A stretch of DNA of 64,000 bases from a bacterium HR28 (lineage in GTDB: Bacteria; Chloroflexota; Chloroflexia; Thermomicrobiales; Thermomicrobiaceae), in NCBI GenBank assembly GCA_002898255.1, contig BEIE01000006.1:49251-113250 (forward strand), in the 5' to 3' direction. Position numbers and translations under genes: made by a program. Shown one piece after another: positions 22,250-38,486 of the stretch (positions are counted from its first letter, which is position 1; the number at the start of each line of letters is the position of its first letter). Below the pieces are notes generated by a model. It saw nothing but the letters and a program-made list of their open reading frames with translations, ran no database searches and was not told the DNA's origin.

Positions 22250-22714
22250 TCATGGCGGCCATGGCGTGTCCGTGCCCGGACCGTAGCTGCTGTAGGTCTG
22301 GTCGATATAGGCGCGGATCTCCTGAAGTGGTCGCCCTTCAGCTGTGAGCCGCATCACGTCACGCGTGATGTCGATGCAGATCGCTCAGCCAAAGGTCATG
22401 CGGCCCAGCACGACCGAGCCGTCAGGACGGAACTCCTCAATTGAACAGTCCAGGACCGAGCGGTGTCCCTGCTCACCACAGCCGCAGTAGCAAGGGAAAT
22501 ACTGGAGGATTTCGGGGTGTGCAGCGGCGTAGCGGTATGCCTCTTGCGCTTCCGGAGAGGCTTGATAGAAGATCGGTGGCCAGCGATCCTGCGAAGGCCA
22601 AGCGACGAGTTCCGAATCACTAGAGGAAGATCCTCGTCCGCACGCAGCGAGGACGGGCAGCGTGGCGAGGCCGATCAGGAAGCGGCGTCGGGTTATGGTC
22701 CGGCGGTTCGTCAT
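22250..22714 (-). CDS. PCYCGC-motif lipoprotein, candidate selenoprotein (in-frame TGA at 22385-22387)
   Basis: Tat/lipobox signal (MTNRRTITRRRFLIGLATLPVLAAC) and the PCYCGCGEQGHRS motif. The track ORF stops at ...GRMTFG-TGA. The same frame continues for 44 codons as AICIDITRDVMRLTAEGRPLQEIRAYIDQTYSSYGPGTDTPWPP-TGA. In homologues as I recall them (...HG.xC.xCL.IA...G.S..EIR..ID..Y) a CxxC sits exactly here, so the TGA aligns with the first Cys. Confidence 0.65.
22352..22370 (-). promoter_or_regulatory. SECIS-like hairpin downstream of the in-frame UGA
   Basis: mRNA sense CAUCACG-CGUGA-CGUGAUG: a 7-bp perfect stem with a 5-nt loop, starting 14 nt after the UGA. Confidence 0.5.
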
Positions 22715-23137
22715 GCGGTGGCCTCCTGCGTAGAACCGACGCAGCAGTCAACTGCGTGCATTGTGCCATCAGGAGCTTGACGAGTGGTATCGGAGTTTTC
22801 CTGACGGGCTGCGTGTTCTCTCTTGTGTGCACGGCGGCGTGCTTGCTGCTGATTCACAATGCGGTACGGAGACACGGTCCAGGGAACCCTGACGAGCGGA
22901 GAGCCATTTCTGATGGAGATGACTGGTTTCGGTTGTAGTGGGTGGTGGACCGAAGGAGGGATAACTCGAACAACTCCAGTGAGAAATGCTGTGGAGCGGT
23001 GTGGAACATTGCGAGCTTCTCGGTGCCTTCCGGGGAGCAGTATGGTGAGCTCACCAGTGTGGCACCGTCGTGTTTTACCACCGTACGAGGTAGGAGATCC
23101 GACTCTTCCAATGGCGGCCACGGCGCACGAGTGCGTG

Positions 23138-23815
23138 TCAGCGGGCCAGATGGCGCCGGAGAAAGGCGAGTGTACGACGCCAGGCATCGATCGCTGCGTC
23201 AGGCCGATAGCTGGCACGCGTGTCATTGAAGAAGGCGTGTGGTGCGCCTGGATAGATATGGAGTTCAAACTCCTTGCCCGCGGCCTCAAGGGCGCGACGG
23301 AGCCGTTCCACCTCACTCGGCGGAATACCCTGATCTGCCTCGCCGTAGAGACCGAGCAGCGGGCAATGCAGTGATCGCACCCGTTCGATCGGATTCGGGT
23401 TACGCCCGTAGAAGACGACGGCAGCTCCGAAGAGATCACTCGCGCAGGCGGCGAGCAAGGAGAGTGCGCCACCCATGCAGAAGCCGACTACGCCGACTGT
23501 GGGGCCGCGGACATCGTCGCGGGCAAGGAGGAACCGGGCTGCCGCAACGATTTCTGCGACTGCGTGGTCGTACTCGAGTTCCATTGCCAGCTTACGCGCC
23601 TCGTCGGGCTCCGTCGCGATCTTGCCATGGTAGAGGTCGGGTGCGAGGGCGACGAAGCCCTCGGCAGCGAACCGGTCAGTGACGTCTTTGATATGGGGCT
23701 CCAGCCCCCACCACTCCTGAATAACGATGACACCTGGCGCGGGAGTTTGTGCCGGAAGCGCAAGGTAGCCGGGCGTCTCGATGCTGTCGCTCGGGAATAC
23801 AATCATCCTGCCCAT
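23138..23815 (-). CDS. dienelactone hydrolase family protein
   Basis: MGRMIVFPSDS...GVIVIQEWWGL...DLYHG... with the nucleophile motif GFCMGG. RBS AGGAGG lies before ATG 23813-23815. Confidence 0.88.
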   Translation of the reverse strand: MGRMIVFPSDSIETPGYLALPAQTPAPGVIVIQEWWGLEPHIKDVTDRFAAEGFVALAPDLYHGKIATEPDEARKLAMELEYDHAVAEIVAAARFLLARDDVRGPTVGVVGFCMGGALSLLAACASDLFGAAVVFYGRNPNPIERVRSLHCPLLGLYGEADQGIPPSEVERLRRALEAAGKEFELHIYPGAPHAFFNDTRASYRPDAAIDAWRRTLAFLRRHLAR

Positions 23816-24386
23816 TGGTCTCCTCCTTTCCCACATTCACCAACTCAACCTCCGCCACGTCAGTGTTCGGGAGATCTCCGGGGGTGACGAACAGTGCAGA
23901 GCGAGTGTAGCGCGCAACTCCCTTGCAGCGGGTAGGATGGGGGGATATAAGTACCTGCCCGATTGCACTAAAGAGACCAGTTGGTGAAGGGACTGCTTTG
24001 CGACCGGAGGCTGGCGTGAGCAATCAGCGATACGTCGAGGAGGGTGTTTTCATCGTACCTGTAAACAAGAGGAAAACGCCGTGGAGTAGTTCATTGGCCG
24101 GCCAAAAAGAAACCCGTCAGATTAGGTTCTTCCGAGGTGGGTGAAATTGCTCCGTTCGGAAGCATATGGCCTTGCCAAGGCATGGGACAGGGCCGAACGG
24201 GTGCTCATGAAGACACTCTTCCCGACTGATGAACCAATGGAGACACAAAGCTTTGACTCAAGTGCGTTGCCGTGCTGGTTCTGAAGGCTTATGCTGCGAT
24301 TGCGGAAGAGTCTCGTAAAGGTGAGGTGAAGATCGTCTACTGAGTAGCTGGAGCGCTCGAGGGGACGAGGGCTTGGAGGGGTGGCC

Positions 24387-25541
24387 ATGAAACGAGTTGT
24401 CATCCTCGGTGGAGGATCAGGTGGGGCAGTTGCGGCTAGTCGGCTTGGCAAATGGGCGCGACCGGGCGAGTTTGAGGTTGTGCTGATCGATCGGAGCGAG
24501 TGGCACGACTTTCGCCCGAGTTATCTTTGGGTGGCAGTAGGGAAGCGGGAGCCAGAAGAAATTCGGCGTCCACTGGCGCTCCTGGAGCAGCGCTACGGGA
24601 CGCGCGTGTTCCGGGCGACCGTGACGGGCATTCGGCCGGAAGCGCAGACGGTTGAGACTGACCAAGGGAACGTTGAGTACGATTACCTGATTGTCGCTTT
24701 GGGGGCGGAGTTAGTGGACACACCGGACGTGGCCGGCTGCGAGGCGCCATGGGAGCTTGCGCCAGCGTTGGAGTTGCGTGAACGGCTCCGTACTTTCGCA
24801 GGTGGGCGAGTGGTTGTGGGTCCGCTTTCTTGGCCATATCGTTGTCCGCCAGCGCCATTCGAAGTCGCGTTTATGTTGAAGTACCTTGCAGAACAGCGGG
24901 GAGTTGCGGAGCGCACACAGATCACAGTGTTCCATCCCTGGAAGGAGCCGATGGAGACATTTGGCCCCCAGATGGTGGAGGGGTTTCGCCGATTCCTCGA
25001 CGACTTTGGGGTGCACTTCGAAGGCGGATTTGTCTGCGTGCGGCATGATCCTGACCGAAAGGTGATTGTTGCGGCTGACGGGAGAGAATTGGAGTATGAC
25101 TTCGCGATCATCGTGCCGCACCATCGGGTGCCCGAGGCGGTAAGGAACTCACCGCTGGCTACAGCGGACGGCTACATGGACGTTGTGCTTCCCTCGATGC
25201 GTTCACCTCGCTACGAAACGGTGTGGGGAATCGGTGATGTGGTGGCGCCAACGATCGGGCTTGGTATGGCCGGTGTCTTTGCGCATTTCCAGGCGGAGCA
25301 CGTGGTGAGTCAGATCATTGATCGGGAGCGCGGTGCGTACCTTGGGGAGTTATACAACATGGTTGGCATCTGCGTAATGGACACAGGGTATATGGGTGCG
25401 GCGGTGTGGTGCAACTTCACCGATAAGCTGTTTGGCCGTGCAGCAGTTCCGGATTGCCGATTACTCGGTGGGATGCGGGCTTTTCGGGCGGTCAAAGTTG
25501 GCTTTGAGCGGTACTGGTTCGCGAACCTCTTTGGTCGATAG
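24387..25541 (+). CDS. FAD-dependent pyridine-nucleotide-disulfide oxidoreductase, sulfide:quinone-oxidoreductase-like
   Basis: Rossmann motif KRVVILGGGSGG, SQR/NDH-2-like length and layout, followed by a DUF1641 gene, which is a common pairing. Confidence 0.75.
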   Translation: MKRVVILGGGSGGAVAASRLGKWARPGEFEVVLIDRSEWHDFRPSYLWVAVGKREPEEIRRPLALLEQRYGTRVFRATVTGIRPEAQTVETDQGNVEYDYLIVALGAELVDTPDVAGCEAPWELAPALELRERLRTFAGGRVVVGPLSWPYRCPPAPFEVAFMLKYLAEQRGVAERTQITVFHPWKEPMETFGPQMVEGFRRFLDDFGVHFEGGFVCVRHDPDRKVIVAADGRELEYDFAIIVPHHRVPEAVRNSPLATADGYMDVVLPSMRSPRYETVWGIGDVVAPTIGLGMAGVFAHFQAEHVVSQIIDRERGAYLGELYNMVGICVMDTGYMGAAVWCNFTDKLFGRAAVPDCRLLGGMRAFRAVKVGFERYWFANLFGR

Positions 25542-25549
25542 GGGGCATC

Positions 25550-26047
25550 ATGAGTGGGCAAGAGATGGCGATGAGTATGCATTTAACTCCGGAGCAGCAG
25601 GAACGGCTGGAGCATCTTCTGGAGCGTGTTGTCGAGCGGGCCGATGCGATCGAGCAACTCCTTGAGACCATCGACCTTTTGGCGGGAAGTGGCCTCCTTG
25701 CGGGTATTCGTGCAGTACTGGAGGAGTTCGATGAGACCTTCAGCGCGATAAATCGCCCGGAGCTGATGGGGATGGTCGCGAACGCCATGATGTTGCTTGG
25801 TCTCCTGAGTCAGCTTCGCTACGAGCCTTTCTTTGACCTCGCGATGCGAGCGCCCGCAGTGATGAACGAGGCATACCCAGCGTTCAAGCAGCGTACGCAG
25901 CGCTTAGGCCTTCGTGAGGCGCTGGAACTCATTCGCAGTCCGGAGATCGCGGCGGCGTTGGAGCTCCTTGTCGCGGTGCTGCGGGCCCAGCGCGGGCGGA
26001 CGACCGAGACTGTAGCACCGCTGCCACGGACGCCGGGACGGTCATAG
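25550..26047 (+). CDS. DUF1641 domain protein
   Basis: Helical protein (LLETIDLLAGSGLLAGIRAVLEEFDETFSAI...MMLLGLLSQL) of the type usually found next to SQR-like flavoproteins. Confidence 0.7.
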   Translation: MSGQEMAMSMHLTPEQQERLEHLLERVVERADAIEQLLETIDLLAGSGLLAGIRAVLEEFDETFSAINRPELMGMVANAMMLLGLLSQLRYEPFFDLAMRAPAVMNEAYPAFKQRTQRLGLREALELIRSPEIAAALELLVAVLRAQRGRTTETVAPLPRTPGRS

Positions 26048-26933: not shown

Positions 26934-27488
26934 TCACTCAATGCCGTCCGTCGCCGTGGACAAGGTGGCTCGGGAAGATACGTGCTCGCGCTCGAGCAGT
27001 TCCTCGACGAGTCGACGGACGCGCTCGACGGCCAGATCGACCGCCTGCGCGACGCGTTCAGTGAGGCCAATGCTTGCCTCGTCTACCTCGGCTGGTTCGC
27101 AGCCGAGCAGTCTGACAAATGGTGGTAGGACCCCGAGCGCCCGTGCCAGGACGAAGATTTTCCACGGCTCGGCGTAGTGGGTGTCGGCCAGAAAGGCCCG
27201 CCGCTCAGCGTCGGTCCACTCGTCCAGATTGTCGATCTCTGGCTCGAGGAGATAGAGGGTGCCCGGCTCTCCGCCACGTCGAACGGCATCGATCACAATC
27301 AGTGCCTCGTAGCCATCCAGCAGCTCCTGCACTACGGCGATACCACCAGTGCCAGCATCCATCAGCGTGACACCGCGGGGAGGCACTTGCCACTCAGCCA
27401 TAAGCCGCTGAACGACTGCTACTCCAAAACCGTCATCTTGCCGGATGACTGAACCCATCCCAGCGATAAGCACCCGTTTCGAGCTCAT
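26934..27488 (-). CDS. [NiFe]-hydrogenase maturation endopeptidase (HyaD/HupD family)
   Basis: KRVLIAGMGSVIRQDDGFGVAVVQRL...LMDAGTGG...LIVIDAV: canonical layout with conserved Asp and His metal ligands. Confidence 0.85.
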   Translation of the reverse strand: MSSKRVLIAGMGSVIRQDDGFGVAVVQRLMAEWQVPPRGVTLMDAGTGGIAVVQELLDGYEALIVIDAVRRGGEPGTLYLLEPEIDNLDEWTDAERRAFLADTHYAEPWKIFVLARALGVLPPFVRLLGCEPAEVDEASIGLTERVAQAVDLAVERVRRLVEELLEREHVSSRATLSTATDGIE

Positions 27489-28390
27489 GTGTGCACCACC
27501 CGCCGCGGACGGCCGATGATGATCTGCCCATCTTGCACTGCTACTGGCACGACCTCGAGTGATCGGCCGGCGCGATCAAGTCGCCGACCACTGTGCAGGT
27601 CGAACCGGCACCCGTGCCATGGGCAAGTGATAATGCCTTCCTCCCAAGAGATGTCATGTCCCATGCTCAGCGGTAACGGGGTTCCTGGGCAAGCGTTACG
27701 GTAGGCGTAGATGTCGTCACCGCGTCGGACTAGTAACACGGAAAGGCCGCGGGTGTCGATCCGCAGTATCCCAACCTCCGGCACTGTCTCCAGCGAGGCT
27801 ACTGTCTCCCATTCCAGACCCGGTCGCCCCGCGTCCTGGACAGGTACCGACACGCGTCGACGTCCCGGTGGTGCTGGGCGTGGGGCAGGAGAAACCAACT
27901 CGACCTCGAGCCGCTCAAATTCAGGCATGCCCTCGCGGAGCGCCGTCTCCACCACCTGCCGAAGCGTCTGGCCCACGGCAGGGCAACCCGAACAGGCTCC
28001 GCCGAGTTGGATGCGAACCACACCATTCTGCACGCTGAGTACCCGCAGCTCTCCCCCGTGCGAGGCGATGTACGGCTGCACCTCTGCTAAGATCCTGTTG
28101 ACCCTGGCGCGCTGCCCTGCCTCATCGAGTTCGTAGAGCTCCAACAGTAGGCTGACAGCGGGGTCAGCCAGCGTTTCCTGGAAGGCCTGCGGGGCTGCCC
28201 GGTGGAAATGCTGTACTAGCCGTCCGATGCCCACACGGTGGAGCAAGTCAATCAGTTGGAGAAGCCGTAGCGCCTGATCACGCAGTACCGGATCGGGCGC
28301 CGATTCCAAGCTCTGGACGAGCGCGTCGATCTCGGTGAGCGCCTGTTGGAGTCGCCTCGCGATTGTCTCGTCTCGTGGCGCAGTGGCCAT
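27485..28390 (-). CDS. NifU-C-terminal-like / Rieske-like fusion protein (HhyE-like hydrogenase-associated FeS protein)
   Basis: Central NifU-like segment (VQPYIASHGGELRVLSVQNGVVRIQLGGACSGCPAVGQTL) and a C-terminal Rieske-like segment (CPGTPLPL...CPWHGCRFD). This fusion is known next to group 1h/5 hydrogenases. Confidence 0.75.
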   Translation of the reverse strand: MATAPRDETIARRLQQALTEIDALVQSLESAPDPVLRDQALRLLQLIDLLHRVGIGRLVQHFHRAAPQAFQETLADPAVSLLLELYELDEAGQRARVNRILAEVQPYIASHGGELRVLSVQNGVVRIQLGGACSGCPAVGQTLRQVVETALREGMPEFERLEVELVSPAPRPAPPGRRRVSVPVQDAGRPGLEWETVASLETVPEVGILRIDTRGLSVLLVRRGDDIYAYRNACPGTPLPLSMGHDISWEEGIITCPWHGCRFDLHSGRRLDRAGRSLEVVPVAVQDGQIIIGRPRRVVHT

Positions 28391-28420
28391 CGCTCGTAAC
28401 TTTCCGCTCAGACGCCTAGA

Positions 28421-28792
28421 TCAGGCGCCTGGACGATCGGGATGGCTAGGGCACGGCTCACCGGCGTGGGCCGGGTCGTGGCACCAGCATCCAGGGGCGC
28501 ATTCGCCGTGAGCCGGTCGGGTCAGATCGGCGAAGGCATCGCGGAAGCGCACAGCCCCTTCCCGCCTGCCCTGCTCCGTCAGGCGATACCGGCCGTGCTC
28601 ACAGGTCAGGTCACCGCTCGCGACTAGGCGGTCGAGGTGAACCTGGATCAGGTCGACGTCAGAGACAAGAAAGCGTGCCAACTCCGCAGCGTCGACATCC
28701 TCCGCCAGTCCCTCGCCGCACATCCAGTACATCGCCTCCAAGATCTCATCTCTCCAGAAGAGATTGTCGAGCGCGCTCGATCCGCTCGTCAT
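28421..28792 (-). CDS. hydrogenase-locus conserved hypothetical protein with a Cys/His-rich C-terminus
   Basis: 123-aa ORF ending ...HGECAPGCWCHDPAHAGEPCPSHPDRPGA. Tightly packed between hydrogenase accessory genes. Confidence 0.6.
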   Translation of the reverse strand: MTSGSSALDNLFWRDEILEAMYWMCGEGLAEDVDAAELARFLVSDVDLIQVHLDRLVASGDLTCEHGRYRLTEQGRREGAVRFRDAFADLTRPAHGECAPGCWCHDPAHAGEPCPSHPDRPGA

Positions 28793-28803
28793 CGACCTGA
28801 CTC

Positions 28804-29433
28804 CTACGTCTCCGTCGTGGCTAGCACCTGCTGGATCAGTGCGCGGACGCGCCGCTCTGCCTCATCGAGCGCAGCTTCACCAAGCGCGCTGAAGCCGTCT
28901 CCCCAGGACTGGTCGAACGGTTCAATCTCAACGACTATCACCTCGTCTGGCAGCGCACCAAAATGGTCCAGGATCAACAAGAGATTTTCGAGATCAATGA
29001 CGCCCGTGACAGCCTCACTCACCCGGCTCTGCAGCTCGTCCGGAGTAACCATGGGCGGATTCCAGGGCATCACCATAACGCTTCCGGGCGGGCGCCCCCG
29101 CGGCACCGCACCGACGAAGATGCCTCGCGAGAAGCGCGGCACCGCCTGGAGCTGGAATAGCACATCGATCGGGCTGTAACTCAGGTCAGCGATGACCACG
29201 CCCGCGGGCCACTGGTCGCTCTGCAACCGGGTCACCAGCGCTGGACCGAGCGAGAGGTCGCGCAGGTTGGTATAGCCGATCCCCGCCACAAGTACCCGCT
29301 GTTCCCCAGGGGACCGTTGCTGCTCGGTGACATCGCGCTGGTGCTTCGTCCTCGGCTGTAGACGAGCATGGCTCGGCCACAGCCACCCTGATAGTGGATC
29401 GATGATTCGTTCAACCTGATGATGATCCGTCAT
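28804..29433 (-). CDS. second hydrogenase endopeptidase-like protein (divergent HupD paralogue)
   Basis: RVLVAGIGYTNLRDLSLGPALVTRL...VVIADLSYSPIDVLFQL... resembles HyaD/HupD but carries an N-terminal extension of about 45 aa and divergent ligand positions. Confidence 0.65.
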   Translation of the reverse strand: MTDHHQVERIIDPLSGWLWPSHARLQPRTKHQRDVTEQQRSPGEQRVLVAGIGYTNLRDLSLGPALVTRLQSDQWPAGVVIADLSYSPIDVLFQLQAVPRFSRGIFVGAVPRGRPPGSVMVMPWNPPMVTPDELQSRVSEAVTGVIDLENLLLILDHFGALPDEVIVVEIEPFDQSWGDGFSALGEAALDEAERRVRALIQQVLATTET

Positions 29434-29444
29434 CCGGTCGTCCC

Positions 29445-31316
29445 TTATTCCTCCAGGATACAGGCGCAGGTGTTCACCTCACGCACCACGACCCGCTCGC
29501 CTGCAAAGACGTGCGTCGTGCAGGGCATGCAGGGGTCGAAGCTCCGGATTGCGCGCAGAATGTCGATAGCCTTGAAGTCCTCCGGGCTATTGAACTGCTC
29601 GATGATCGGCGTGTTCAGCACTGCCTCCTCGTACGGTCCCGGGTTTCCCCACGGATCACGCGGGGAGGCATTGATGGTCGACGGGGTGATGATCTGGTAG
29701 TTGGTCAGCACCCCGTTGTCCATCGTCAGGTGATGGGTCAGGTAACCGCGACCGGCACCCCAGAAGCCAACGCCGATCCGGAAGTCACGCGGCACAGTGA
29801 AGTCGCGGCTCACCGCCGTGTTGCCTTGCTTCATCAGCTCGTAGCCGATGAGTAGGTTGTTCAGGGCGACCAGAGCCGTGTACGCTTCGGCATACGCCCG
29901 CGCGCGGTTGCGCTCGATCGCGTTCCAGTCGGCTGGAATGTGCCACTCGAGGGTCATCTCGGGCAGGCGTCCCTTGGGTACCAGCATGCGCAGGCTCTGG
30001 CCAGTGGACTCGATGAAGGGGTTCTCCGGGATCTTCTTGGCCGCTGCCGTCGTCCACATGCGCACGTAGACGCCGGCCTCCATGACCGTGCGGTCCCAGC
30101 GCGGTGTGCAGGCCCAGGTGTACTTCTCCTTCCAGCTTCGGCCGGTCGGCTTGGGGCGAGTCTGCTTGTTCCAGGGATGGTAGGGGCTCAGCGGGTTACC
30201 GACCGGATCAGTCTTCAGCGGGTAGTCGTTCCAGTCATCGTAGTAGGAGTGTTCGACGAACTCTTCCAAACCAGCGTTGAGCAGATGGAGATTCGTCGTG
30301 ACGAGCTCGCCGTCGCGGACAACGCCCGGCGTATTCCATCGGCGCTCGCCCCAGTGGTCGGCGTGTCGGTAGTCGGCATCGTACGCCTCGTGGTGATCCC
30401 AGATTCCCGCATCGATCAGGTTCTTCGGACGGGCGCCGACCTGACGGAAGCGTGGCTCGATCTCGTAGAGGAAGTTGAAGACATCGTCCCACAGCAGCGC
30501 CATCTTCTTGGAGTAGTCAAGCAGGTCAAACAGACGCACCTGGTATTCATTGAGGACTCTCATCGAGATCGTTGTGCTGATCCCACCGGGCACAATTGTC
30601 TGCGGGTGGGGGTACTTGCCCCAAACCAGCACCGTCATCTCGCGTGCCTTGCGCGTCATCTCCAGGGCTTCGAGGTAGAGCGAACCAGTCAACGGGTTCA
30701 GCGCCGTCATGATCTCACCGATCGTCTTGAACCCGTGAACATCCGCGTTCGGGGCCAACGCGGTCTGGGCGCGCTCCCAGATCTCCGGGTTCGTCGCGCG
30801 GATCACCGTTTCGGAGTAGTCTGGTCCGGCGAGCAGGAAGAGGTGCAACGGATGGTCGTAGAGGAACTCAGCTGTCTGCCCCAGGTTGCGCACGACGATC
30901 CCCATCGGGGGCGGCGGTGTTCCGAAAGCCATCTCGATCGCCTCGGCTGAGCAGTTCGCGTGCACACCCCCGCACACGCCGCAAGCCCGGCTGCTGATGA
31001 AGATCGCATCGCGCGGATCGCGTCCCTTGAGGATCACCTCGTAGCCGCGGAATAGTGTCGCCATCGAGTGCGCATCGAGGACTTTGCGGTTCTCCAGATC
31101 CACGACGGCATGGAAAGCGAGTGCCCCCGCCACGCGAGTGACCGGATCGATGCTCACCTCGTGAATGTGGCCGTTGCGACGCAAGAGCTCCTCGATCCGC
31201 TCTTGTTGAGTCGCTACGGTCTTGGTCGAAGTGTAGGCATATGGGTCGCGAATATCGCTTCGCAGGCGGGCCCTGCCTGACTCGTCGAACTCGATCGGCA
31301 GATTCTTGAAGCACAT
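29445..31316 (-). CDS. hhyL: [NiFe]-hydrogenase large subunit, group 1h/5-like
   Basis: N-terminal RACGVCGGVH and C-terminal SFDPCMPCTTH Ni-Fe ligand motifs, followed by a short C-terminal extension. All four ligand Cys are ordinary Cys codons. Confidence 0.92.
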   Translation of the reverse strand: MCFKNLPIEFDESGRARLRSDIRDPYAYTSTKTVATQQERIEELLRRNGHIHEVSIDPVTRVAGALAFHAVVDLENRKVLDAHSMATLFRGYEVILKGRDPRDAIFISSRACGVCGGVHANCSAEAIEMAFGTPPPPMGIVVRNLGQTAEFLYDHPLHLFLLAGPDYSETVIRATNPEIWERAQTALAPNADVHGFKTIGEIMTALNPLTGSLYLEALEMTRKAREMTVLVWGKYPHPQTIVPGGISTTISMRVLNEYQVRLFDLLDYSKKMALLWDDVFNFLYEIEPRFRQVGARPKNLIDAGIWDHHEAYDADYRHADHWGERRWNTPGVVRDGELVTTNLHLLNAGLEEFVEHSYYDDWNDYPLKTDPVGNPLSPYHPWNKQTRPKPTGRSWKEKYTWACTPRWDRTVMEAGVYVRMWTTAAAKKIPENPFIESTGQSLRMLVPKGRLPEMTLEWHIPADWNAIERNRARAYAEAYTALVALNNLLIGYELMKQGNTAVSRDFTVPRDFRIGVGFWGAGRGYLTHHLTMDNGVLTNYQIITPSTINASPRDPWGNPGPYEEAVLNTPIIEQFNSPEDFKAIDILRAIRSFDPCMPCTTHVFAGERVVVREVNTCACILEE

Positions 31317-31333
31317 GGCGGGACCTCCTCGCT

Positions 31334-31633
31334 CTAGGTCCTCTCGGTCGCTCTCCCCGTCGTTAGTCGCGCGAGCTGCTCATCGAGCCGCCGCAGCTCA
31401 TTGGCCAGTACCGTGCCAGAGGCCACTATGGACTCAAGACCACGCTGCAGCGGCGGGAGCTGGGCTTGCAGCAGTGAGGTTTGCCGCTCGATTGCGGCGA
31501 CACCCCAGACAATCTTCGAGGCGGTTCCGTGGATACGCTCAAGCGCCTGCCGTATACGACTCAGCGCGTAGGCCAGCACGACGAGGAAGAGCAGGAAAAG
31601 TGCGCTAGAGAGCAGGGTGAGCAGCAGGACCAT
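31334..31633 (-). CDS. small single-pass membrane protein, paralogue 4 of 4
   Basis: 99 aa: an N-terminal hydrophobic helix (MVLLLTLLSSALFLLFLVVLAYAL), then a helical or coiled-coil-like tail. It lies 17 nt upstream of hhyL. Confidence 0.6.
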   Translation of the reverse strand: MVLLLTLLSSALFLLFLVVLAYALSRIRQALERIHGTASKIVWGVAAIERQTSLLQAQLPPLQRGLESIVASGTVLANELRRLDEQLARLTTGRATERT

Positions 31634-31645
31634 CAGTCAACTCCT

Positions 31646-31936
31646 TCAGCTTACGAGCCCCAAGGAACGAAGCTTCACCCCGAGTGAGGCGGCGATACGC
31701 TCGATCTCGGCGACGGCCACGCCGAGTTGATCAGCCGCTGCAACCACTGCCGGCATCGTGGAAAGCGCATGAGCGTGGCGACCGATTCCTTCGATGGAGA
31801 CAAGTGCCTCACGGGCCAGATGATCGATCACCCGCAAGTGCGCGATGACTCGGAGTACCAAGAGTAGAGCAATGATGGTGGTGATGAGAGCCACCAGGAG
31901 CGCCACGATCCAGACAATAACCGCGAGCACGAGCAT
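31646..31936 (-). CDS. small single-pass membrane protein, paralogue 3 of 4
   Basis: 96 aa with the same architecture (MLVLAVIVWIVALLVALITTIIALLLVLRV...). There is a 12-nt gap to the next gene. Confidence 0.6.
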   Translation of the reverse strand: MLVLAVIVWIVALLVALITTIIALLLVLRVIAHLRVIDHLAREALVSIEGIGRHAHALSTMPAVVAAADQLGVAVAEIERIAASLGVKLRSLGLVS

Positions 31937-31947
31937 TGTTCAACTCC

Positions 31948-32250
31948 TCAGGCAACCTGCGAGCGCTCAACCACCTCAGGCGCACCGACGGGTGCAGCCC
32001 CAAGATGCTCGGCCGTCCGATCGAGTGATTCCGCCACTGCTGTCAGATCTTTGTGGACTCGCTCGAGCTGGACGTTCAGGTCGGTCGTTGCGGTTTCTAC
32101 AGCTCGCATGAGCGTGGCAATCTGAGCAAACGTTCCACCGATTCTGCGGAGGTAAAAGAGAATAGTCAGCAGCGCTACGGTCAGGACCAGCACCAGGACG
32201 ACAGCGTAGACAGCGGTGATCACAGCCAGGACGCGAACGAGCGTTTCCAT
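31948..32250 (-). CDS. small single-pass membrane protein, paralogue 2 of 4
   Basis: 100 aa with the same architecture (VLAVITAVYAVVLVLVLTVALLTILFYLRRI...). There is an 11-nt gap to the next gene. Confidence 0.6.
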   Translation of the reverse strand: METLVRVLAVITAVYAVVLVLVLTVALLTILFYLRRIGGTFAQIATLMRAVETATTDLNVQLERVHKDLTAVAESLDRTAEHLGAAPVGAPEVVERSQVA

Positions 32251-32259
32251 AGTCCCTCC

Positions 32260-32550
32260 TCAGCGCTGCTGTGCCCGCTCCAGCCGCTCGTTGAGCGTGC
32301 GGGCGGCCTCAGCGATCGCGTCGAGCCGGTTGAGAATCCGAGTTGCGACCTGGTTTGTCTGAGCGAGCAGGGGGATGCTTGTCGTGTTCGCTGCAATCCC
32401 CTTACCGGCCTGCCAGATAGCCGCGGCGTGCCGGTCGATCCGCTCGACTGCTCGCCAAATGGCGATGAGCAGGATCGCGACAACGAGTACCACGACCAGC
32501 GCGATCGCCAGGACGAGCCACCAGAAAGCGGTTACGGTCATCTCCGGCAT
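32260..32550 (-). CDS. small single-pass membrane protein, paralogue 1 of 4
   Basis: About 96 aa counted from ATG 32548-32550 (MPEMTVTAFWWLVLAIALVVVLVVAILLIAIWRAV...). The ORF-track start at 32574 is a TTG. Lies immediately downstream of hhyS. Confidence 0.6.
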   Translation of the reverse strand: MPEMTVTAFWWLVLAIALVVVLVVAILLIAIWRAVERIDRHAAAIWQAGKGIAANTTSIPLLAQTNQVATRILNRLDAIAEAARTLNERLERAQQR

Positions 32551-32579
32551 CACGATCCCCTCTCGAGTTACCAAGTGCC

Positions 32580-33806
32580 CTATTCAGGCTTTGCTGATGA
32601 GCCACGCCAGCGCAGCCGGTTGTAGAAAAACTCCACAGTTCGCTCGATGATCGGCACGTCGTACTCAGCGCCCCAACCGCTCGGGATCGCTCGCTGACGG
32701 TCCCAGCGCGTCTCACGGTTGCGGTCGCGCTGGGTGATACGGCGCAGCGGGCGGATGAACGAACCATTGAGTCGTGAGACTGTGCTTGAGAGGGTTGATC
32801 CTGGAGGGGCCTTATAGAACGGCGAGAACTTGTCCGGGAAACCGGGCATGGTGCAGCCGATGCAGGGTCCCCCGACATTCATGCAGCCACCGAGGCCGTT
32901 GATGGCCCCGCGACTGGTGATGTTGCAGTTGACGACTGGTCCCCAACAGCCGATCTCGACCAGGCACTCCGGGTCGCCGTAATGCTCAGCGAAGACACCT
33001 TCCTCGTAGTATCCGGCGCGGGTGCACTGCCGGTGCACCGTCTCGCCGAAGAGCCAGGCTGGACGGCCCAACTCGTCGAACTCTGGCACCGGGCCGAGGC
33101 CTTGCAGGAAGAGGAGCACTGCGGCCACAGTCTCGGTGAAGTTATCGCCCACCGGAGCGCAGCCGGGGATGTTGATGACCGGCAGGCCGAGTGCACTGCG
33201 GTAGTCGCGACCCAGGAAGTCCATCACACTCATCGCTCCGGTGGCGTTGTGGTAGGCGGACGGGATCCCACCCCAGGTCGCGCAGGTACCGATCGCGATA
33301 ACCGCGGCCGCACCGGGTGCCAGCCGCTTCAACCAAACTGCGGATGGTACTTGCTTGAATTGGCCGGTCTGCTCATCGAACTCCTCACCGACAGCCGACC
33401 AGTATCCTTCACCGGCTCGTGTTTCGTCCGGCACCGAGCCCTCGTAGACGATCACATAAGGGGCACCGAGCGTACCCTCGAGCGCCCGCTGCATCGGCTC
33501 GACGAAGGGGTCACCAGACTCCACATTGACCGCTGAGTGATGGAGCAAGATCTGGGGCAGGCCAGGTAACGACCCCATAAGGAGATCTTCGACCCGTGGC
33601 GCTACCGCGCCCAGCACAGAGATGGTGCACCCGTCGCAGCTCATCCCAGCGAGCCAGAAGACGTGGACGTGGGTATACGGGCCAAGCAGGCTGTCGCGTC
33701 CCAGTTGTTCCCGGGCGAGGCGCTGGATCTCCTCGGTCGTCGCCCCGGCGACGTTACCGACCATGCCAAGCTTCGGACGCACCTTCGGCTTCACGTCGAT
33801 GGCCAT
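32580..33806 (-). CDS. hhyS: [NiFe]-hydrogenase small subunit, group 1h/5-like (no Tat signal)
   Basis: FWLAGMSCDGCTIS, GTCATWGGIP, IPGCAP, and a distal cluster region (CWGPVVNCN...GGPCIGCTMPGFPD). The N-terminus lacks an RRxF motif. RBS AAGGAG is present. Confidence 0.92.
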   Translation of the reverse strand: MAIDVKPKVRPKLGMVGNVAGATTEEIQRLAREQLGRDSLLGPYTHVHVFWLAGMSCDGCTISVLGAVAPRVEDLLMGSLPGLPQILLHHSAVNVESGDPFVEPMQRALEGTLGAPYVIVYEGSVPDETRAGEGYWSAVGEEFDEQTGQFKQVPSAVWLKRLAPGAAAVIAIGTCATWGGIPSAYHNATGAMSVMDFLGRDYRSALGLPVINIPGCAPVGDNFTETVAAVLLFLQGLGPVPEFDELGRPAWLFGETVHRQCTRAGYYEEGVFAEHYGDPECLVEIGCWGPVVNCNITSRGAINGLGGCMNVGGPCIGCTMPGFPDKFSPFYKAPPGSTLSSTVSRLNGSFIRPLRRITQRDRNRETRWDRQRAIPSGWGAEYDVPIIERTVEFFYNRLRWRGSSAKPE

Positions 33807-34611
33807 TGTGAGTCTCCTTCTTCAGCAGGGTTCTGCCATTCTCTAGGATGTGCTCTGTCAGTTTTGCGATCGCGCGCACCGCTGGTGCAGTCGGCATGTA
33901 GTCGAGGAGCGCGCGGCCGAGTCGGTCGGCTTCCTGAACCGCCTCGTCGAAGGGGATCGATCCGATCACGCTCACGTCGAGGCGAGCGCAATAGTCGCGG
34001 ATCGCAGCTTCATCCTCTGGTGATCGCACCTTGTTGGCCACGACACCGATGCACCCAATACCGAGCTCGCGGGCGAGGGGCACAATCCGGCCGAGGGTCT
34101 CCAGTGCCCGGAAGTACGGTTCGACTACGACGAGCAGCATATCGACGTGACGCACAGTTCCCCGGCTCAGATGCTCGATCGAAGCCTCCATATCGAGAAT
34201 GGTGACGTCCTCGGGACGGAGCGTGCCGAGTTCGGCTACCACGCCGCGCACGGCGGCGTGCTGCCCACACAGTCAGCCGCGGCCGGCGCCGAGCAGGCCA
34301 GTCATTGCCAAGACGCGGACACCGTCCGGGCCGATCACACCGTAGCGCGTGATAATCTCCTCGAACGGGCAGATCAGATGGAGGGAGGCGTGACCATCAC
34401 TGTCCACTCGTTCCTCGAGGATCTCCTCGCGCGGCACCCGCCGGAGCTGCTCGATCTGCTCCGTGGACAGACCAAGTGCCCGCGCGAGGTTCGGGTTCGG
34501 GTCGTCGTCCAGGGCGTTAACCGAGTACCCGCGCTGTGCGGCCAGCCGAGCCATCGTCGCAGCGAGCGTCGTCTTCCCAGCTCCGCCTTTGCCCGCGACG
34601 GCAATCCGCAT
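33754..34611 (-). CDS. CooC/MinD-type P-loop ATPase (Ni-insertion-factor-like), candidate selenoprotein (in-frame TGA at 34273-34275)
   Basis: ATG 34609-34611 follows GGAGG. MRIAVAGKGGAGKTTLAA (deviant Walker A) ...LLGAGRG-TGA-LCGQHAAVRGVV...ILDMEASIEHLSRGTVRHVDMLLVVVEP... The two track ORFs (34273..34668 and 33754..34251) are in the same frame and together rebuild one CooC-like protein. The TGA aligns with the first Cys of the CooC C-x-C metal motif (I recall GGSQCYCRENSF in C. hydrogenoformans CooC1). The 3' end overlaps hhyS by 53 nt. Confidence 0.65.
34240..34260 (-). promoter_or_regulatory. SECIS-like hairpin downstream of the in-frame UGA
   Basis: mRNA sense CACGCCGC-CGUGC-GCGGCGUG: an 8-bp perfect stem with a 5-nt loop, starting 12 nt after the UGA. 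Confidence 0.5.
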
Positions 34612-34918: not shown

Positions 34919-34988
34919 TCCCAGCACAGTGCCAAGACGAGCGAAGCGTGGACTGCTGTGGGGCTCTGAAGAACGGAGGAGTGTTGCC

Positions 34989-35303
34989 ATGAGCGCTACT
35001 TCAGGTAGCTCCCAAACCTTCGCCGAGGTGCTCAGGCGGGAGCGGAAACGCCGGGGTTGGACGCAAGCCCAGTTGGCCGAGCGCTTGCAGGTACGCCAGT
35101 CAGCGATCTCTCACTGGGAGAGCGGCCGGGAGCGACCGGCGCTCGAGCATTTGCTTCTACTTCTCCTTCTCTTTCCAGACCTCCTCACGACGCTGACGCT
35201 CGAGGAGCGCCGCCAGCTCTATAACTTGACCCGTGTCCAGCGAACTCTAGCAACCGAATGCTTGTGCTCAGGCTGTCGCTGTGGCGCGAGCACAGCGGCC
35301 TAG
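34989..35303 (+). CDS. XRE-family helix-turn-helix protein
   Basis: FAEVLRRERKRRGWTQAQLAERLQVRQSAISHWESGRERP is a canonical Cro/C1 HTH. Start at ATG 34989. Confidence 0.8.
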   Translation: MSATSGSSQTFAEVLRRERKRRGWTQAQLAERLQVRQSAISHWESGRERPALEHLLLLLLLFPDLLTTLTLEERRQLYNLTRVQRTLATECLCSGCRCGASTAA

Positions 35304-35328
35304 CTTCCAGAGAACGTGGAGGGGATAG

Positions 35329-35355
35329 AGACCGGCCGGTATCCTCATGGCCGGT
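35329..35355. terminator. stem-loop between convergent genes (possible bidirectional terminator)
   Basis: GACCGGCC-(11 nt)-GGCCGGTC, followed by a T-rich stretch (AAATTTCTCTGTT) on the plus strand. Confidence 0.45.
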
Positions 35356-35379
35356 CAGTCAAATTTCTCTGTTCAAGGT

Positions 35380-37179
35380 TTACTCACTGCTGAGCGCAGT
35401 CTTCCTAACCTGTTCGGGGTCGCCCTTCCACCACATCCACGTTCCAGGCTCACCATCGAGGACGATTTCGGCCCCCGGCTCCAGTTCCCCAGCGAGCAAT
35501 GCGCGGGCAATTGGGTCCAGCACTTCACGATCGATGAGTCGCCGGAGTGGGCGCGCACCGAGCTCGCGGTCGTGCCCGGCGCGCGCGAGAGCGCTGCGGG
35601 CGCTTGGGGACAGACGTACCCTGACTCCCCAGAGACTGAGGCGCTGCTGCGCCCGCTCGAGCTGGAGGTCGACGATTTGCTCCATCGCCTCAAGGGAAAG
35701 TGGAGCGAAGAGGACGATATCGTCCAGGCGGTTGAGTAACTCGGGGCGAAAGAGTCGGCGAGCGTAGGAGAGGAACACTTCCGGCGCTCGTTCACCGGCT
35801 CCGATTGCTTCCTGAGATCCGGCGTTGGAAGTAAGCACAATCAGTGTGTTGTGAAAGTCGACCGTACGGCCATATCCGTCGGTGAGGCGGCCGTCCTCGA
35901 GGATCTGGAGCAGAAGGTTCAGTACATCGGGATGTGCTTTCTCGGCTTCGTCGAAGAGGACCACCGAGAAGGGGCGTCGCAAGACCGGATCGGTCAACTG
36001 GCCTGGCAGCCCGAAGCCAACGTATCCAGGTGGAGCACCAATCAAGCGGGCTACGGCGTGCCGCTCCATGTATTCACTCATATCTATGCGGATCAGCGAC
36101 TCTTCGTCGCCGAAGAGAAACTCGGCGAGGGCTCGAGCGAGCTCGGTTTTCCCGACACCGGTTGGACCGATAAAGAGGAACGAGCCGAGCGGACGGCGTG
36201 GGTCACCGAGGCCGGTGCGTGCCCGCCGGAGGGCTCTGGCGACGGCGCGGATCGCTGGTTCCTGGCCGACCACACGCCTGGCAAGAGCACTTTCGATCTC
36301 CAGCCAGTGACGTTCGCCACCGGAGCCGGGGGAGAGCATGTCCAATCCGCTGAGCGGTAACCCTGTGCGCAGCGCAACTGCCTCAAGTAGGCGGTTGCGC
36401 CCCACTACCGTCTCGCCATCGAGGTGTGCCAGCGCGGCTGCATGATCGAGGATCTGGAGGGCGCTGCCGGGTAGCACGTGTGCGCGCAGAAAGCGCTGGG
36501 CCAGTTGAATGGCCAGGCGCAGCGCTTCAGGCGCGAATTCCACTTGATGGTGCGCTTGCAACCGTGGCAGGTGAGCCCGTAACACGGCCTCGCAGGCTGC
36601 CTCGTCCCAGGCTGGCATCTCGATGACCTGGACCAGCATGTCCCAATTAGGAATGGACTGCGTGAGGCGTGCTGCCTGTTCGGGGGTGAGTGGCAGGACG
36701 ATTCCTCCCGCATTCAGGAGTGCGCGAAGGGCGATGTTGCCAGAGGTCGCGTCACTGTTGCTCAGACCGAGCAACTCGGCCCCTTCGAGGACGACGACCA
36801 GGCGGCCAGACCCGGCAGCAATCTCTCGGCTAAGCTGCTCTGCACGTTGCTCGAGTTCGCCACGGTAACGGGCACCGGAGACGAGACGGGCGACATCAAT
36901 CCAGAAGACCTGGTAATTGAGGAGCTCGGCTGGGGCATCACGGTGCGCGATCGCTTGGGCCAGCGCTCGCAGCGCGCTGCGTCTGCCGGAGCCAGGAGGT
37001 CCGACCAACGCGACGTTCCCTTTGAACGTGCTGCGGAGTGCGGCCGTGAGGCGCCTGGTCAGCTCGTGCCGTTGGACGAGAGGTTGTGGCTGAGCGAGCA
37101 ATGCTCTGGTGAGATCGTAGCCGTAACGGGCGAGTTCATTCCAGCGTGCCCAACCAGACCCATTCCCTCTTCGCACCAT
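35380..37179 (-). CDS. Clp/Hsp100-family AAA+ ATPase with a degenerate first nucleotide-binding domain
   Basis: D2 is canonical (FLFIGPTGVGKTELARALA, VVLFDEAEKAHPDV, sensor/arginine GARPLRR). D1 has GPPGSGRRS in place of GxxGxGK[ST] and VVVLEGAE in place of hhhhDE. No ClpN or M-domain is evident. Its ATG abuts the stop of the upstream gene (TGAATG). Confidence 0.85.
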   Translation of the reverse strand: MVRRGNGSGWARWNELARYGYDLTRALLAQPQPLVQRHELTRRLTAALRSTFKGNVALVGPPGSGRRSALRALAQAIAHRDAPAELLNYQVFWIDVARLVSGARYRGELEQRAEQLSREIAAGSGRLVVVLEGAELLGLSNSDATSGNIALRALLNAGGIVLPLTPEQAARLTQSIPNWDMLVQVIEMPAWDEAACEAVLRAHLPRLQAHHQVEFAPEALRLAIQLAQRFLRAHVLPGSALQILDHAAALAHLDGETVVGRNRLLEAVALRTGLPLSGLDMLSPGSGGERHWLEIESALARRVVGQEPAIRAVARALRRARTGLGDPRRPLGSFLFIGPTGVGKTELARALAEFLFGDEESLIRIDMSEYMERHAVARLIGAPPGYVGFGLPGQLTDPVLRRPFSVVLFDEAEKAHPDVLNLLLQILEDGRLTDGYGRTVDFHNTLIVLTSNAGSQEAIGAGERAPEVFLSYARRLFRPELLNRLDDIVLFAPLSLEAMEQIVDLQLERAQQRLSLWGVRVRLSPSARSALARAGHDRELGARPLRRLIDREVLDPIARALLAGELEPGAEIVLDGEPGTWMWWKGDPEQVRKTALSSE

Positions 37180-37602
37180 TCACGGGCCTACCTCGAACTC
37201 GAACCGTGCCTCGGAGCCCTCCGGCATGAGCATGACGATTGCTACCCAGTCACCGGGCATCGGAAATTTGATGACGCCAGTCCACTTCCCTGGGCCCTCG
37301 TAGTGCAAGGCCACTTCTGGATGGCCCATTGGCATCTCGGGCATATCGACGGTGAGGTGCGGCTCGACCTCGGTTGCCTCGACTGGCTTCCCACCTCGCG
37401 TGATCGTCACCATCAGTGACGTCCCTCTACCGCTCTTCGGCGGGTTGGGATCGAGTTGTAAGGTTACCTCGTACTCTCCGATACGCTGCGGCGCGGCCTT
37501 AAACTGCTCAGCCTCCACCCGACAGGCGGCTGTGGACAGGACTACCAGAGTCGGGAACAGCACGCTCCCGACCACCACGGAGACGACCCACCTCGACGTC
37601 AT
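37180..37602 (-). CDS. YtkA/FixH-like domain lipoprotein with a Met/His-rich site
   Basis: Signal plus lipobox (VVLSTAAC), then a beta-sandwich-like domain (YEVTLQLDPNPPKSGRGTSLMVTI...DMPEMPMGHPEV...GKWTGVIKFPMPGDW). Confidence 0.7.
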   Translation of the reverse strand: MTSRWVVSVVVGSVLFPTLVVLSTAACRVEAEQFKAAPQRIGEYEVTLQLDPNPPKSGRGTSLMVTITRGGKPVEATEVEPHLTVDMPEMPMGHPEVALHYEGPGKWTGVIKFPMPGDWVAIVMLMPEGSEARFEFEVGP

Positions 37603-37616
37603 CGCGCTTCCGCCGC

Positions 37617-38033
37617 CTATGGACGGAAGAGACCCATGTCGACGCCAAAGAGAAACAGCACCGGCATCACGATCTGCATCATCACAAAGTAGGTGAGGGC
37701 CGCAGTGAAGAGGCTCACCTTGAACGCTTGCCTCGCCAACCGCTGGGCGACTGCTCCAGGGAGCCCGCTGACCCGCCGCCGCATAAGCAGCCAGGTCATC
37801 CCAAGAGTCAGCACAAGGCCGATGAGGACAAGAATTGGTCGCAAGCCAACCGGCGAGATCTTATCGAGTGCGAAGAGTGCCGCGTTCAAACCGGCTGCCC
37901 AGGTGGCAACTGCCACCAGCCCAACGCTTCAGCAGAGGCTTGCTGTTGTGCCACCAATGAGACCAGCGGCGATAGGGGCACGCCATTCGTCGGCTGCTTC
38001 GGACATAGCCATCGGGCGGGTATCTGCGATCAT
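37617..38033 (-). CDS. MerT/MerF-like membrane protein B, candidate selenoprotein (in-frame TGA at 37929-37931)
   Basis: ATG 38031-38033 follows GGAGGG. MIADTRPMAMSEAADEWRAPIAAGLIGGTTASLC-TGA-SVGLVAVATWAAGLNAALFAL..., continuing in frame into the 99-aa track ORF. The C-U pair sits in the first TM helix, where MerT and MerF carry a vicinal CC (recalled MerF IGTTLVALCCFTPVLVILLG). Confidence 0.6.
37902..37917 (-). promoter_or_regulatory. SECIS-like hairpin downstream of the in-frame UGA
   Basis: mRNA sense GGUGGC-AGUU-GCCACC: a 6-bp perfect stem with a 4-nt loop, starting 11 nt after the UGA. Confidence 0.5.
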
Positions 38034-38042
38034 GCTTCCCTC

Positions 38043-38486
38043 CTATCCCCCCAGTCGCGGGTACTGGAAGCCGATAAGGTTCAGGATGGCCGACACCACG
38101 ACCATGTAGGTCATGTAGCCGGCTAGCGCCCAAGCTGAGAGGCGAAAGAGCGTGCGCCGGAAGACGTCGCGGTACTGTGCTGGAGGTAGCTCGCGGCGGT
38201 ACCCCCGGGTGAGCCAGCGAGCTAGCCCGAGGATGAGTAGGATCGCAAAGAGCGTGGAGAGTAGGGTGATTCCCTGCATGTTAGCCCAGGTGCGCATGAA
38301 GGTGACCGCGCCGACGGCACCGATCAGCGTGGCGACAACTGCCGCCAGCCCGCCACCTCAGCAGACAGCGGCAAGAACGCCACCACCAACAGCGCAGGCC
38401 TTACCTGTGAAGGTAACCTGGGGCTCTTCGAGCGCTTGAGCCTGCGGAGCAGGCATCGGCTGCGCATGCGCCTGCGGTTCAGCCAT
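38043..38486 (-). CDS. MerT/MerF-like membrane protein A, candidate selenoprotein (in-frame TGA at 38358-38360)
   Basis: ATG 38484-38486 follows GGAGG. MAEPQAHAQPMPAPQAQALEEPQVTFTGKACAVGGGVLAAVC-TGA-GGGLAAVVATLIGAVGAVTF, then in frame into the 84-aa track ORF (MRTWANMQGITLL...). Same architecture as protein B. Confidence 0.6.
38330..38347 (-). promoter_or_regulatory. SECIS-like hairpin downstream of the in-frame UGA
   Basis: mRNA sense UGGCGGC-AGUU-GUCGCCA: a 7-bp stem including one G.U pair, which would be a C.A mismatch in the antisense RNA. 4-nt loop, starting 10 nt after the UGA. Confidence 0.5.

Follow-up and report, generated by a model that had tools for sequence, protein, structure and literature searches.

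Four probable selenoprotein genes, three of them beside a [NiFe]-hydrogenase cluster, in a Thermomicrobium-like Chloroflexota bacterium

The CYCXC (or PCYCGC) selenoprotein OS_HP4 was first predicted in the metagenome of the Olavius algarvensis symbionts. PF13798, 'CYCXC family protein (OS_HP4)', with a UxxC motif in which U stands for selenocysteine (Sec), is among the 119 prokaryotic selenoprotein families of a 2026 review, and NCBIfam holds the model NF041379 as 'CYCXC family (seleno)protein'. A 'putative mercuric transport protein' selenoprotein family (PF02411, C/SxxU) has also been catalogued, and Haft and Gwadz noted that a few MerT-family selenoproteins, for example WP_250634603.1, contain the rare dipeptide CU. 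In [NiFeSe] hydrogenases, Sec is a nickel ligand in the large subunit. CooC1 of Carboxydothermus hydrogenoformans, the nickel-inserting ATPase of Ni,Fe-CO dehydrogenase, carries a CxC motif that chelates metal at the dimer interface (PMC3792862). Here we analyse a stretch of 64,000 nucleotides of bacterium HR28 (contig BEIE01000006.1, positions 49,251 to 113,250), hereafter called the window, in which four minus-strand genes are each interrupted by a single in-frame TGA while the translated frame runs on into a conserved protein. They encode a PCYCGC-family protein, a CooC-family (MinD/ParA-type) P-loop ATPase and two small membrane proteins, named A and B. We conclude that these are very probably genuine selenoprotein genes, in which UGA would be recoded to Sec by means of bacterial selenocysteine insertion sequence (bSECIS) hairpins.

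Each of the four proteins resembles one of these systems and departs from it. The PCYCGC protein belongs to the same Pfam family (95.3 bits against PF13798, cut-off 25) and has the UxxC motif, but it reaches only 61.1 bits against NF041379, whose equivalog cut-off is 90, so that it represents a related subfamily and not the curated one; it is moreover a lipoprotein form with a twin-arginine (Tat) type signal, from a Thermomicrobium-like Chloroflexota. The ATPase is like CooC1 in its P-loop, in its homology and in a UxC placed at Cys112-x-Cys114, but it would have Sec for the first Cys and its gene adjoins a hydrogenase small-subunit gene rather than cooS or acs. No Ni,Fe-CO dehydrogenase gene (cooS/acsA) was found in association with it, the CO-dehydrogenase-like genes of the window, at 51-56 kb, being of the molybdenum type only. 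Proteins A and B share with the MerT-type CU selenoproteins their small size, their membrane location and a putative Sec in or next to a vicinal Cys pair, as CU, in the first membrane segment; they differ by scoring below the MerT thresholds and by having hydrogenase and hyp genes as neighbours. The theme common to the window and the [NiFeSe] hydrogenases is selenium-nickel ligation in hydrogen metabolism, but here the large subunit is uninterrupted, Sec is predicted in accessory proteins and the enzyme resembles the aerobic high-affinity group 1l, not the anaerobic type.

A preliminary description of this DNA, made from the sequence without database searches, had supposed that neither CooC-type, PCYCGC-type nor MerT/MerF-type selenoproteins were established families. 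For PCYCGC (NF041379, OS_HP4) and for the MerT-type CU proteins this has to be corrected, as both have already been described. For the CooC type it stands: no CooC, MinD or ParA-type selenoprotein appears in the 119-family review of 2026, the family list of Peng et al., the deep-Sep paper, the BSepDB text or a 2026 paper on Sec-containing group 4 hydrogenases, nor did any emerge from full-text searches combining CooC with selenocysteine. Within the sources searched, a Sec-containing, hydrogenase-associated CooC-type ATPase is thus apparently a new selenoprotein family. The mechanism of UGA with a bSECIS is itself well known, the PCYCGC family is catalogued, and A and B are variants of a noted theme.

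The four TGA codons lie on the minus strand with the residue contexts first reported, and the frame is open after each of them (Table 1). In all four families, alignment with full-length homologues places the U position on a conserved Cys column. For the CooC-like protein, 20 full-length homologues with 45-64% identity invariably have in this column the first Cys of G-C-[ILM]-C; for protein A it is the second Cys of VCC-GGG in homologues with 50-88% identity; for protein B, the homologues P0199-P0201 and that of locus L054 align there with the second residue of their CC pair; and for the PCYCGC protein it is the first Cys of G-C-x-I-C-V-D-I. TGA terminates 14 of the 31 family-supported genes of the window, the PCYCGC gene among them (at 22250-22252), so the genetic code is not reassigned, in agreement with the preliminary description. 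Public gene calls break each of the four genes at its TGA, giving for instance 112 + 165 residues for the CooC-like protein and 42 + 84 residues for protein A, and no public annotation seen marks the PCYCGC gene as a selenoprotein gene. As every public annotation seen splits or truncates all four genes, databases lack the full-length proteins. When all in-frame TGA junctions of the window were listed, no extra site with a Cys-adjacent context and a hairpin was found; a codon-usage scan for more TGA-interrupted genes, which was crude and too insensitive, recovered the CooC-like site only.

A hairpin follows each UGA in the mRNA. In the PCYCGC gene a spacer of 14 nt precedes a 7-bp stem (CAUCACG/CGUGAUG) with the loop CGUGA, which starts 21 nt past the UGA (-9.0 kcal/mol). 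The CooC-like gene has a spacer of 12 nt, an 8-bp stem (CACGCCGC/GCGGCGUG) and the loop CGUGC, starting at 20 nt (-16.0 kcal/mol). In the genes of A and B the loop is AGUU and starts 17 nt past the UGA, after a spacer of 10 nt and a 7-bp stem with one G.U pair (UGGCGGC/GUCGCCA, -11.3 kcal/mol) in the former, and after a spacer of 11 nt and a 6-bp stem (GGUGGC/GCCACC, -11.4 kcal/mol) in the latter. The published bSECIS model asks for a loop of 3-9 nt, a stem of 4-16 bp, a G in the first two loop positions, 16-37 nt between UGA and loop and a minimum free energy of -7.5 kcal/mol or lower (PMC13188914), and every one of these constraints is satisfied by all four hairpins. Folding and scanning reproduced the stems, loops, spacers, loop starts of 17-21 nt and single G.U pair that had been reported before. 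An Rfam scan of the window at gathering thresholds returned a tRNA-Lys only and no SECIS family.

In order to estimate how often such hairpins arise by chance, we scanned all TGA triplets on both strands of the window. A strict rule (stem of at least 6 bp, loop of 4-5 nt with G-U at positions 2-3, 16-22 nt from UGA to loop) was passed by 8 of the 1761 triplets, and four of these eight are the claimed sites; elsewhere the rate is 4/1757. The four other positives are the TGAs at 14407, 22442, 24388 and 8163, and the eight include no TGA that terminates one of the 14 family-supported genes ending in this codon. As the four sites themselves had served to define the strict rule, a looser rule, which requires a G in the first two loop positions, gives the fairer null: 68 of the 1761 triplets pass it (3.9%), and the chance of four out of four at that rate is about 2e-6, in line with the earlier opinion that coincidence was unlikely. 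Two of the other strict positives may be described here. The TGA at 14407-14409 (+) is followed at SECIS-like spacing by a 10-bp hairpin with the loop UGUG. The one at 24388 is out of frame with an SQR-like open reading frame (ORF) that starts at 24381; this ORF (24381-25541, +) ends with TAG and contains no in-frame TGA, and is for these reasons a non-Sec relative of another selenoprotein family.

The CooC-like ATPase provides the largest comparative data set. It matches CooC1 (PDB 3kje) with an E-value of 1.4e-32 over residues 1-235, has the P-loop GKGGxGKTT, and its U-L-C aligns with C112-Y-C114. Its Pfam matches are CbiA, ParA and Fer4_NifH, and no NCBIfam model claims it. With a degenerate DNA pattern for G-x-G-TGA-x-C-G-Q-H, 50 metagenome contigs carrying the TGA form of the gene were recovered; all 50 read through in frame, and their uncut downstream frames are mostly 145-172 residues long (90 in two loci). 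A genome scan performed with the alignment of the CooC-like protein returned 80 loci, and among the 61 in which the motif could be located, 22 have TGA and 39 have TGC or TGT. The 22 TGA-form genome loci are spread over six phyla, Chloroflexota, Actinomycetota, Acidobacteriota, Dormibacterota, SAR324 and Verrucomicrobiota; the corresponding metagenome-assembled genomes (MAGs) belong to Thermomicrobiales, Limnocylindria, Ktedonobacteria, Chloroflexia, Anaerolineae, Rubrobacteraceae, another Actinomycetota, several Acidobacteriota, Dormibacterota, SAR324 and Verrucomicrobiota.

Sec and Cys forms of this gene differ in their capacity to form the stem. Pairing at the five core positions of the stem is seen in 92-98% of 60 distinct Sec forms, compared with 17-80% of 40 Cys forms; orthologues with TGA keep a covarying hairpin and orthologues with TGC or TGT mostly lack the stem. 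Among the Sec-form sequences, pair 22-30 is G-C 34 times, A-U 21 times and U-A once, and pair 21-31 is C-G 49 times, U-A six times and U-G three times. Altogether we counted 34 double-sided compensatory cells in the stem, against 10.8 +/- 2.5 in column shuffles, and none of 500 shuffles gave a value as high; sliding the stem partners lowered pairing from 85% to 16-55%. Position 30, which falls on the third base of an Arg codon, is synonymous and varies together with the first base of an Ala/Thr codon; the constraint therefore acts on the RNA and not on the protein. In a neighbour-joining tree of the CooC-like proteins, Sec forms occupy several deep branches and one Cys form is nested among them, which indicates an old Sec state with later Sec/Cys interchanges. 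The C-terminal tail of the ATPase is unconserved among homologues; in the window, 53 nt (33754-33806) are shared between the 3' end of its gene and the start of the gene for the hydrogenase small subunit. In some MAGs a pair of CooC-like paralogues lies near the hydrogenase: in L066 (8503 and 9807) both are Sec forms, and in L068 (10333 and 12791) one is a Sec and the other a Cys form. The second paralogue of these MAGs has the motif U-T-C-G-N-H and forms a deep branch of its own.

Proteins A and B are paralogous (31% identity by BLASTP; hhalign probability 98.3%), and in both the C-U pair, which is CC in homologues, stands at the start of the first hydrophobic segment, the topology being read from the sequence. 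Most other matches of protein A are C-terminal fragments that start just past the U position, the called fragments being 82-101 residues long. Both TGAs and both hairpins are retained in loci L142 and L143. The hairpin of protein A is the same in L143, and in L142 a G-C pair replaces the G.U pair; that of protein B has the same stem in L142 (loop AGUU) and L143 (loop GGUC). Locus L054 encodes a protein A homologue with 26% identity that also has the TGA, together with a B partner that has CC, and L145 has CC forms of both. The TGA is therefore conserved in three lineages for A (L142, L143 and L054) and in two for B, too few sequences for covariation statistics. The family is tiny, with five matches among 1.84 billion protein representatives. 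The label 'MerT/MerF-like' given to these proteins in the preliminary description is justified by the vicinal Cys motif, but not by profile scores or context: protein B reaches 19.3 bits against MerT (PF02411; E 0.0012, cut-off 32.9) and 18.9 bits against NCBIfam MerTP, its only match there (E 0.00088, cut-off 180), protein A has no MerT match in Pfam, and neither merA nor merP was seen among the called genes beside A and B in the window or in L142-L145. A profile search of the PDB gave no meaningful match for either protein.

The PCYCGC gene, 12 kb away from the three others, is independent of them and belongs to a family for which Sec had been predicted before. Its product has a Tat-like signal, a lipobox Cys and the motifs FPCYCGCG and G-U-A-I-C, and the alignment to NF041379 extends over residues 54-141, the U position included. 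In the annotations, all of the closer homologues (59-98% identity) stop at ...FG. Orthologues in L137-L139, with 63-72% identity, have the TGA, a conserved in-frame tail of 44-47 residues and an identical stem, while in the Cys form L140 the same ITRDVM peptide is encoded by synonymous codons that disrupt the stem. The Cys-form relatives adjoin genes for cupredoxin/COX2-like proteins, a P-type ATPase and Fer4_5 proteins, a copper-type context.

Thermomicrobium roseum DSM 5159 is SelD+, SelA+ and SelB+ with five known selenoproteins, and Sphaerobacter, Nitrolancetus, Ktedonobacter and Rubrobacter use Sec as well (Peng et al. 2016, PMC5029168, with Tables S1 and S2 for T. roseum). The window corresponds to a metagenome contig, k119_54212 of ENA ERZ27314177. 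UniRef uses the name Thermomicrobium roseum, and GenBank that of 'bacterium HR26', for proteins that share 90% identity or more with those of the window, and such proteins are also present on a 717-kb JGI contig; a search of the plasmid database PLSDB for a copy on the T. roseum megaplasmid gave no useful match. Judged from this related type strain, the Sec trait is very plausible for the organism of the window.

Several observations nevertheless weigh against Sec recoding, or against the roles we assign to the proteins. Neither the 64 kb of the window nor the other loci covered, about 1.5 Mb in all, yielded selA, selB, selD or a tRNA-Sec. ARAGORN detected no tRNA-Sec in the window or in any of the loci, and a search with an E. 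coli SelD query gave two weak matches of AIR-synthase type with 22-24% identity, perhaps HypE. The hairpins, taken in isolation, have modest z-scores against shuffles (-1.75 to -3.06), part of each is favoured by the encoded peptide (AAVRG, ITRDVM, LAAVVAT), and a weaker hairpin is kept in some Cys forms (protein A of L145, L141 and some HRAVRG CooC forms). In the protein A homologue of L054 the loop UCUG has the G in a permitted position only if the closing pair opens. The part that the CooC-like protein, A and B most likely play, namely the supply of a metal, likeliest nickel, to the hydrogenase, is deduced from homology and neighbourhood only.

Against this background we considered other explanations for the interrupted frames. 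If the TGAs were real nonsense codons, or assembly or sequencing errors, the genes would be pseudogenes yielding truncated, non-functional fragments; all public annotations seen do call fragments (112 + 165, 42 + 84 or 109 residues, for example), and the absence of the Sec machinery from the available sequence would fit. However, the same TGA codon occurs in independent assemblies, down to 26-70% protein identity, always with an intact downstream frame, always on the conserved Cys column and with a covarying hairpin after it, and a nonsense mutation would not persist across six phyla. We consider this explanation barely tenable. Alternatively, the genes could be genuinely split, with a stop at the UGA, a separate downstream start and two cooperating polypeptides, the hairpin acting in mRNA stability or translational coupling. 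Gene callers do find internal starts for the downstream parts, but these fall on differing, non-conserved Met or Val codons, as the variable length of the called A-family fragments illustrates. The break would moreover fall inside the metal motif (CxC, CC or CxxC), and inside a membrane segment as well in A and B, and in the 72 CooC-like Sec-form loci the stop at the junction is never other than TGA, all of which makes split genes very improbable.

A UGA at a Cys position followed by a hairpin cannot by itself distinguish the insertion of Sec from that of Cys. UGA-to-Cys recoding by a selC-like tRNA with a SelB-like factor has been reported for some bacteria, and hairpin-stimulated near-cognate read-through to Trp or Cys may also be envisaged. 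Non-Sec recoding of this kind is improbable here: the hairpins match the standard SelB-type bSECIS model, the closest named species possesses SelA, SelB and SelD, curators already treat the PCYCGC family, which has its UxxC at this very position, as selenoproteins, and a UGA with a hairpin for plain Cys would bring no evident advantage, given relatives that use TGC or TGT. Taken together, the pairs of Sec and Cys homologues, the conservation of TGA and hairpin across lineages and the covariation strongly support Sec recoding, at Cys positions that are metal ligands in relatives and with a SECIS of the bacterial type, as the preliminary description had proposed.

Following the established bacterial pathway, SelB.GTP.Sec-tRNA(Sec) would bind the hairpin whose loop lies 17-21 nt past the UGA on the same mRNA, and Sec would be inserted instead of termination, giving full-length proteins of 154, 285, 147 and 138 residues for the PCYCGC protein, the CooC-like ATPase, A and B, respectively. 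In the CooC-like protein, a nickel-inserting type of ATPase with a Cys-x-Cys metal site at its dimer interface, Sec would replace the first Cys of that site; in A and B, where a vicinal CC pair marks the start of the first membrane segment, it would replace the second Cys; and in the PCYCGC protein, which is exported, it would replace the first Cys of the second CxxC. In relatives, the Cys at each of these positions is a metal ligand.

Table 1. Coordinates, in the window, of the four TGA-interrupted genes, their hairpins and the neighbouring genes.
Feature	Position	Strand	Details
PCYCGC/CYCXC-family gene	22250..22714	(-)	154 codons including Sec; Sec codon 22385-22387, TFG-U-AIC
Hairpin of PCYCGC gene	22352..22370	(-)	stem 22364-22370 / 22352-22358, loop 22359-22363
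CooC-family (MinD/ParA-type) P-loop ATPase gene	33754..34611	(-)	285 codons including Sec; Sec codon 34273-34275, GRG-U-LC-GQH
Hairpin of CooC-like gene	34240..34260	(-)	stem 34253-34260 / 34240-34247, loop 34248-34252
Small membrane protein A gene	38043..38486	(-)	147 codons including Sec; Sec codon 38358-38360, AAVC-U-GGG
Hairpin of protein A gene	38330..38347	(-)	stem 38341-38347 / 38330-38336, loop 38337-38340
Small membrane protein B gene	37617..38033	(-)	138 codons including Sec; Sec codon 37929-37931, ASLC-U-SVG
Hairpin of protein B gene	37902..37917	(-)	stem 37912-37917 / 37902-37907, loop 37908-37911
[NiFe]-hydrogenase cluster, group-1l layout	26934..33806	(-)	
Hydrogenase small subunit	32580-33806	(-)	
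Four ORFs of 96-104 residues	31334-32574	(-)	between small- and large-subunit genes
Hydrogenase large subunit	29445-31316	(-)	uninterrupted ORF of 623 residues
Maturation-protease-like ORF, 209 residues	28804-29433	(-)	TIGR00072 just above cut-off
ORF of 123 residues	in hydrogenase cluster	(-)	listed between protease-like ORF and NifU-Rieske gene
NifU-Rieske protein	27485-28390	(-)	
HycI-type endopeptidase, 184 residues	26934-27488	(-)	Pfam HycI
YtkA-like protein	37180..37602	(-)	PF13115, E 2.1e-12
ClpB/ClpA-like AAA+ ATPase, 599 residues	35380..37179	(-)	Pfam AAA_2, ClpB_D2-small; NCBIfam ClpB 486 bits, below cut-off
XRE-type helix-turn-helix regulator	34989..35303	(+)	divergent, between the two gene groups

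The preliminary description had overlooked that three of the four genes, those of the CooC-like ATPase, A and B, lie in a conserved [NiFe]-hydrogenase neighbourhood (Table 1). Hydrogenase genes adjoin the CooC-like gene in 16 of the 22 Sec-form and 25 of the 39 Cys-form genome loci, most of the others being cut by contig ends. The block formed by A, B and the YtkA-like and ClpB-like genes recurs beside CooC-like and hydrogenase genes in L142 and L143/L144, where the YtkA-like gene follows A and B in the same order; the position of the ClpB-like gene is conserved in L142, L143 and L145. The slot between the two gene groups, filled by an XRE-type regulator in the window, holds a MerR-family regulator in L142 and L143. 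In L145 the A/B block comes directly after hypF-hypC-hypD-hypE and ahead of three CooC paralogues. These three consecutive CooC-like genes (9043-11393 of that locus) belong to a Cys-form relative and stand next to an extra hypC, an arrangement that suggests a multi-component CooC system in hydrogenase maturation. In about 145 loci searched by tblastn, hypA was found in none and hypB in one (L108), a weak negative as the queries were distant E. coli sequences.

By its gene layout, the hydrogenase of the window resembles the group-1l type. The group 1l cluster of Hymenobacter roseosalivarius has the same layout, with five short ORFs (bioRxiv 10.1101/2020.08.06.239558); between the subunit genes there are four such ORFs in the window and five in L143. 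The CooC-like homologue of H. roseosalivarius was recovered (L095), its hydrogenase genes lying outside the stretch covered. Assignment to group 1h was dropped, since short ORFs separate the small- and large-subunit genes here, as in group 1l. T. roseum DSM 5159 has been described with a group 1h enzyme and adjacent hhyLS genes, and in view of this difference in layout the organism of the window may carry a hydrogenase different from, or additional to, that of T. roseum. The cluster also holds two maturation-protease-like genes (28804-29433 and 26934-27488).

Further along the window, a molybdenum hydroxylase/aerobic CO-dehydrogenase-like cluster (51230-56170, +) comprises a CoxM-like FAD subunit, a small ORF and a CoxL-like subunit of 800 residues. 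After the CoxL-like gene comes a gene for an XdhC/CoxI protein fused to a C-terminal YHS domain, without TGA; YHS-domain proteins are another selenoprotein family listed in the 2026 review.

The three putative selenoproteins of the hydrogenase neighbourhood most likely take part in selenium-assisted handling of nickel or another soft metal for hydrogenase maturation, in which the CooC-like ATPase would be the nickel insertase. More tentatively, one may speculate that maturation of the group-1l hydrogenases, reported as the dominant atmospheric-H2 oxidisers of Antarctic soils, is selenium-dependent in many lineages. A Sec-x-Cys CooC-type nickel insertase would then occupy the role of HypB and be fed by the CU membrane proteins, a pair not recognised before, together with the YtkA-like and ClpB-like proteins, and selenium would serve as a metal-trafficking ligand rather than as a redox catalyst. 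The two CC/CU membrane proteins, the YtkA-like protein and the ClpB-like ATPase are candidate components of the metal supply to the hydrogenase. The CooC-type Sec ATPase, present in at least six bacterial phyla and with a group-1l-type [NiFe]-hydrogenase almost always next to it, would exemplify Sec as a ligand in a metal chaperone. If selenium does have this part in maturation, the scavenging of trace gas would be tied to selenium supply. The finding suggests that the aerobic H2 scavengers of soils and hot springs may need selenium to mature their hydrogenases, a prediction that can be tested.

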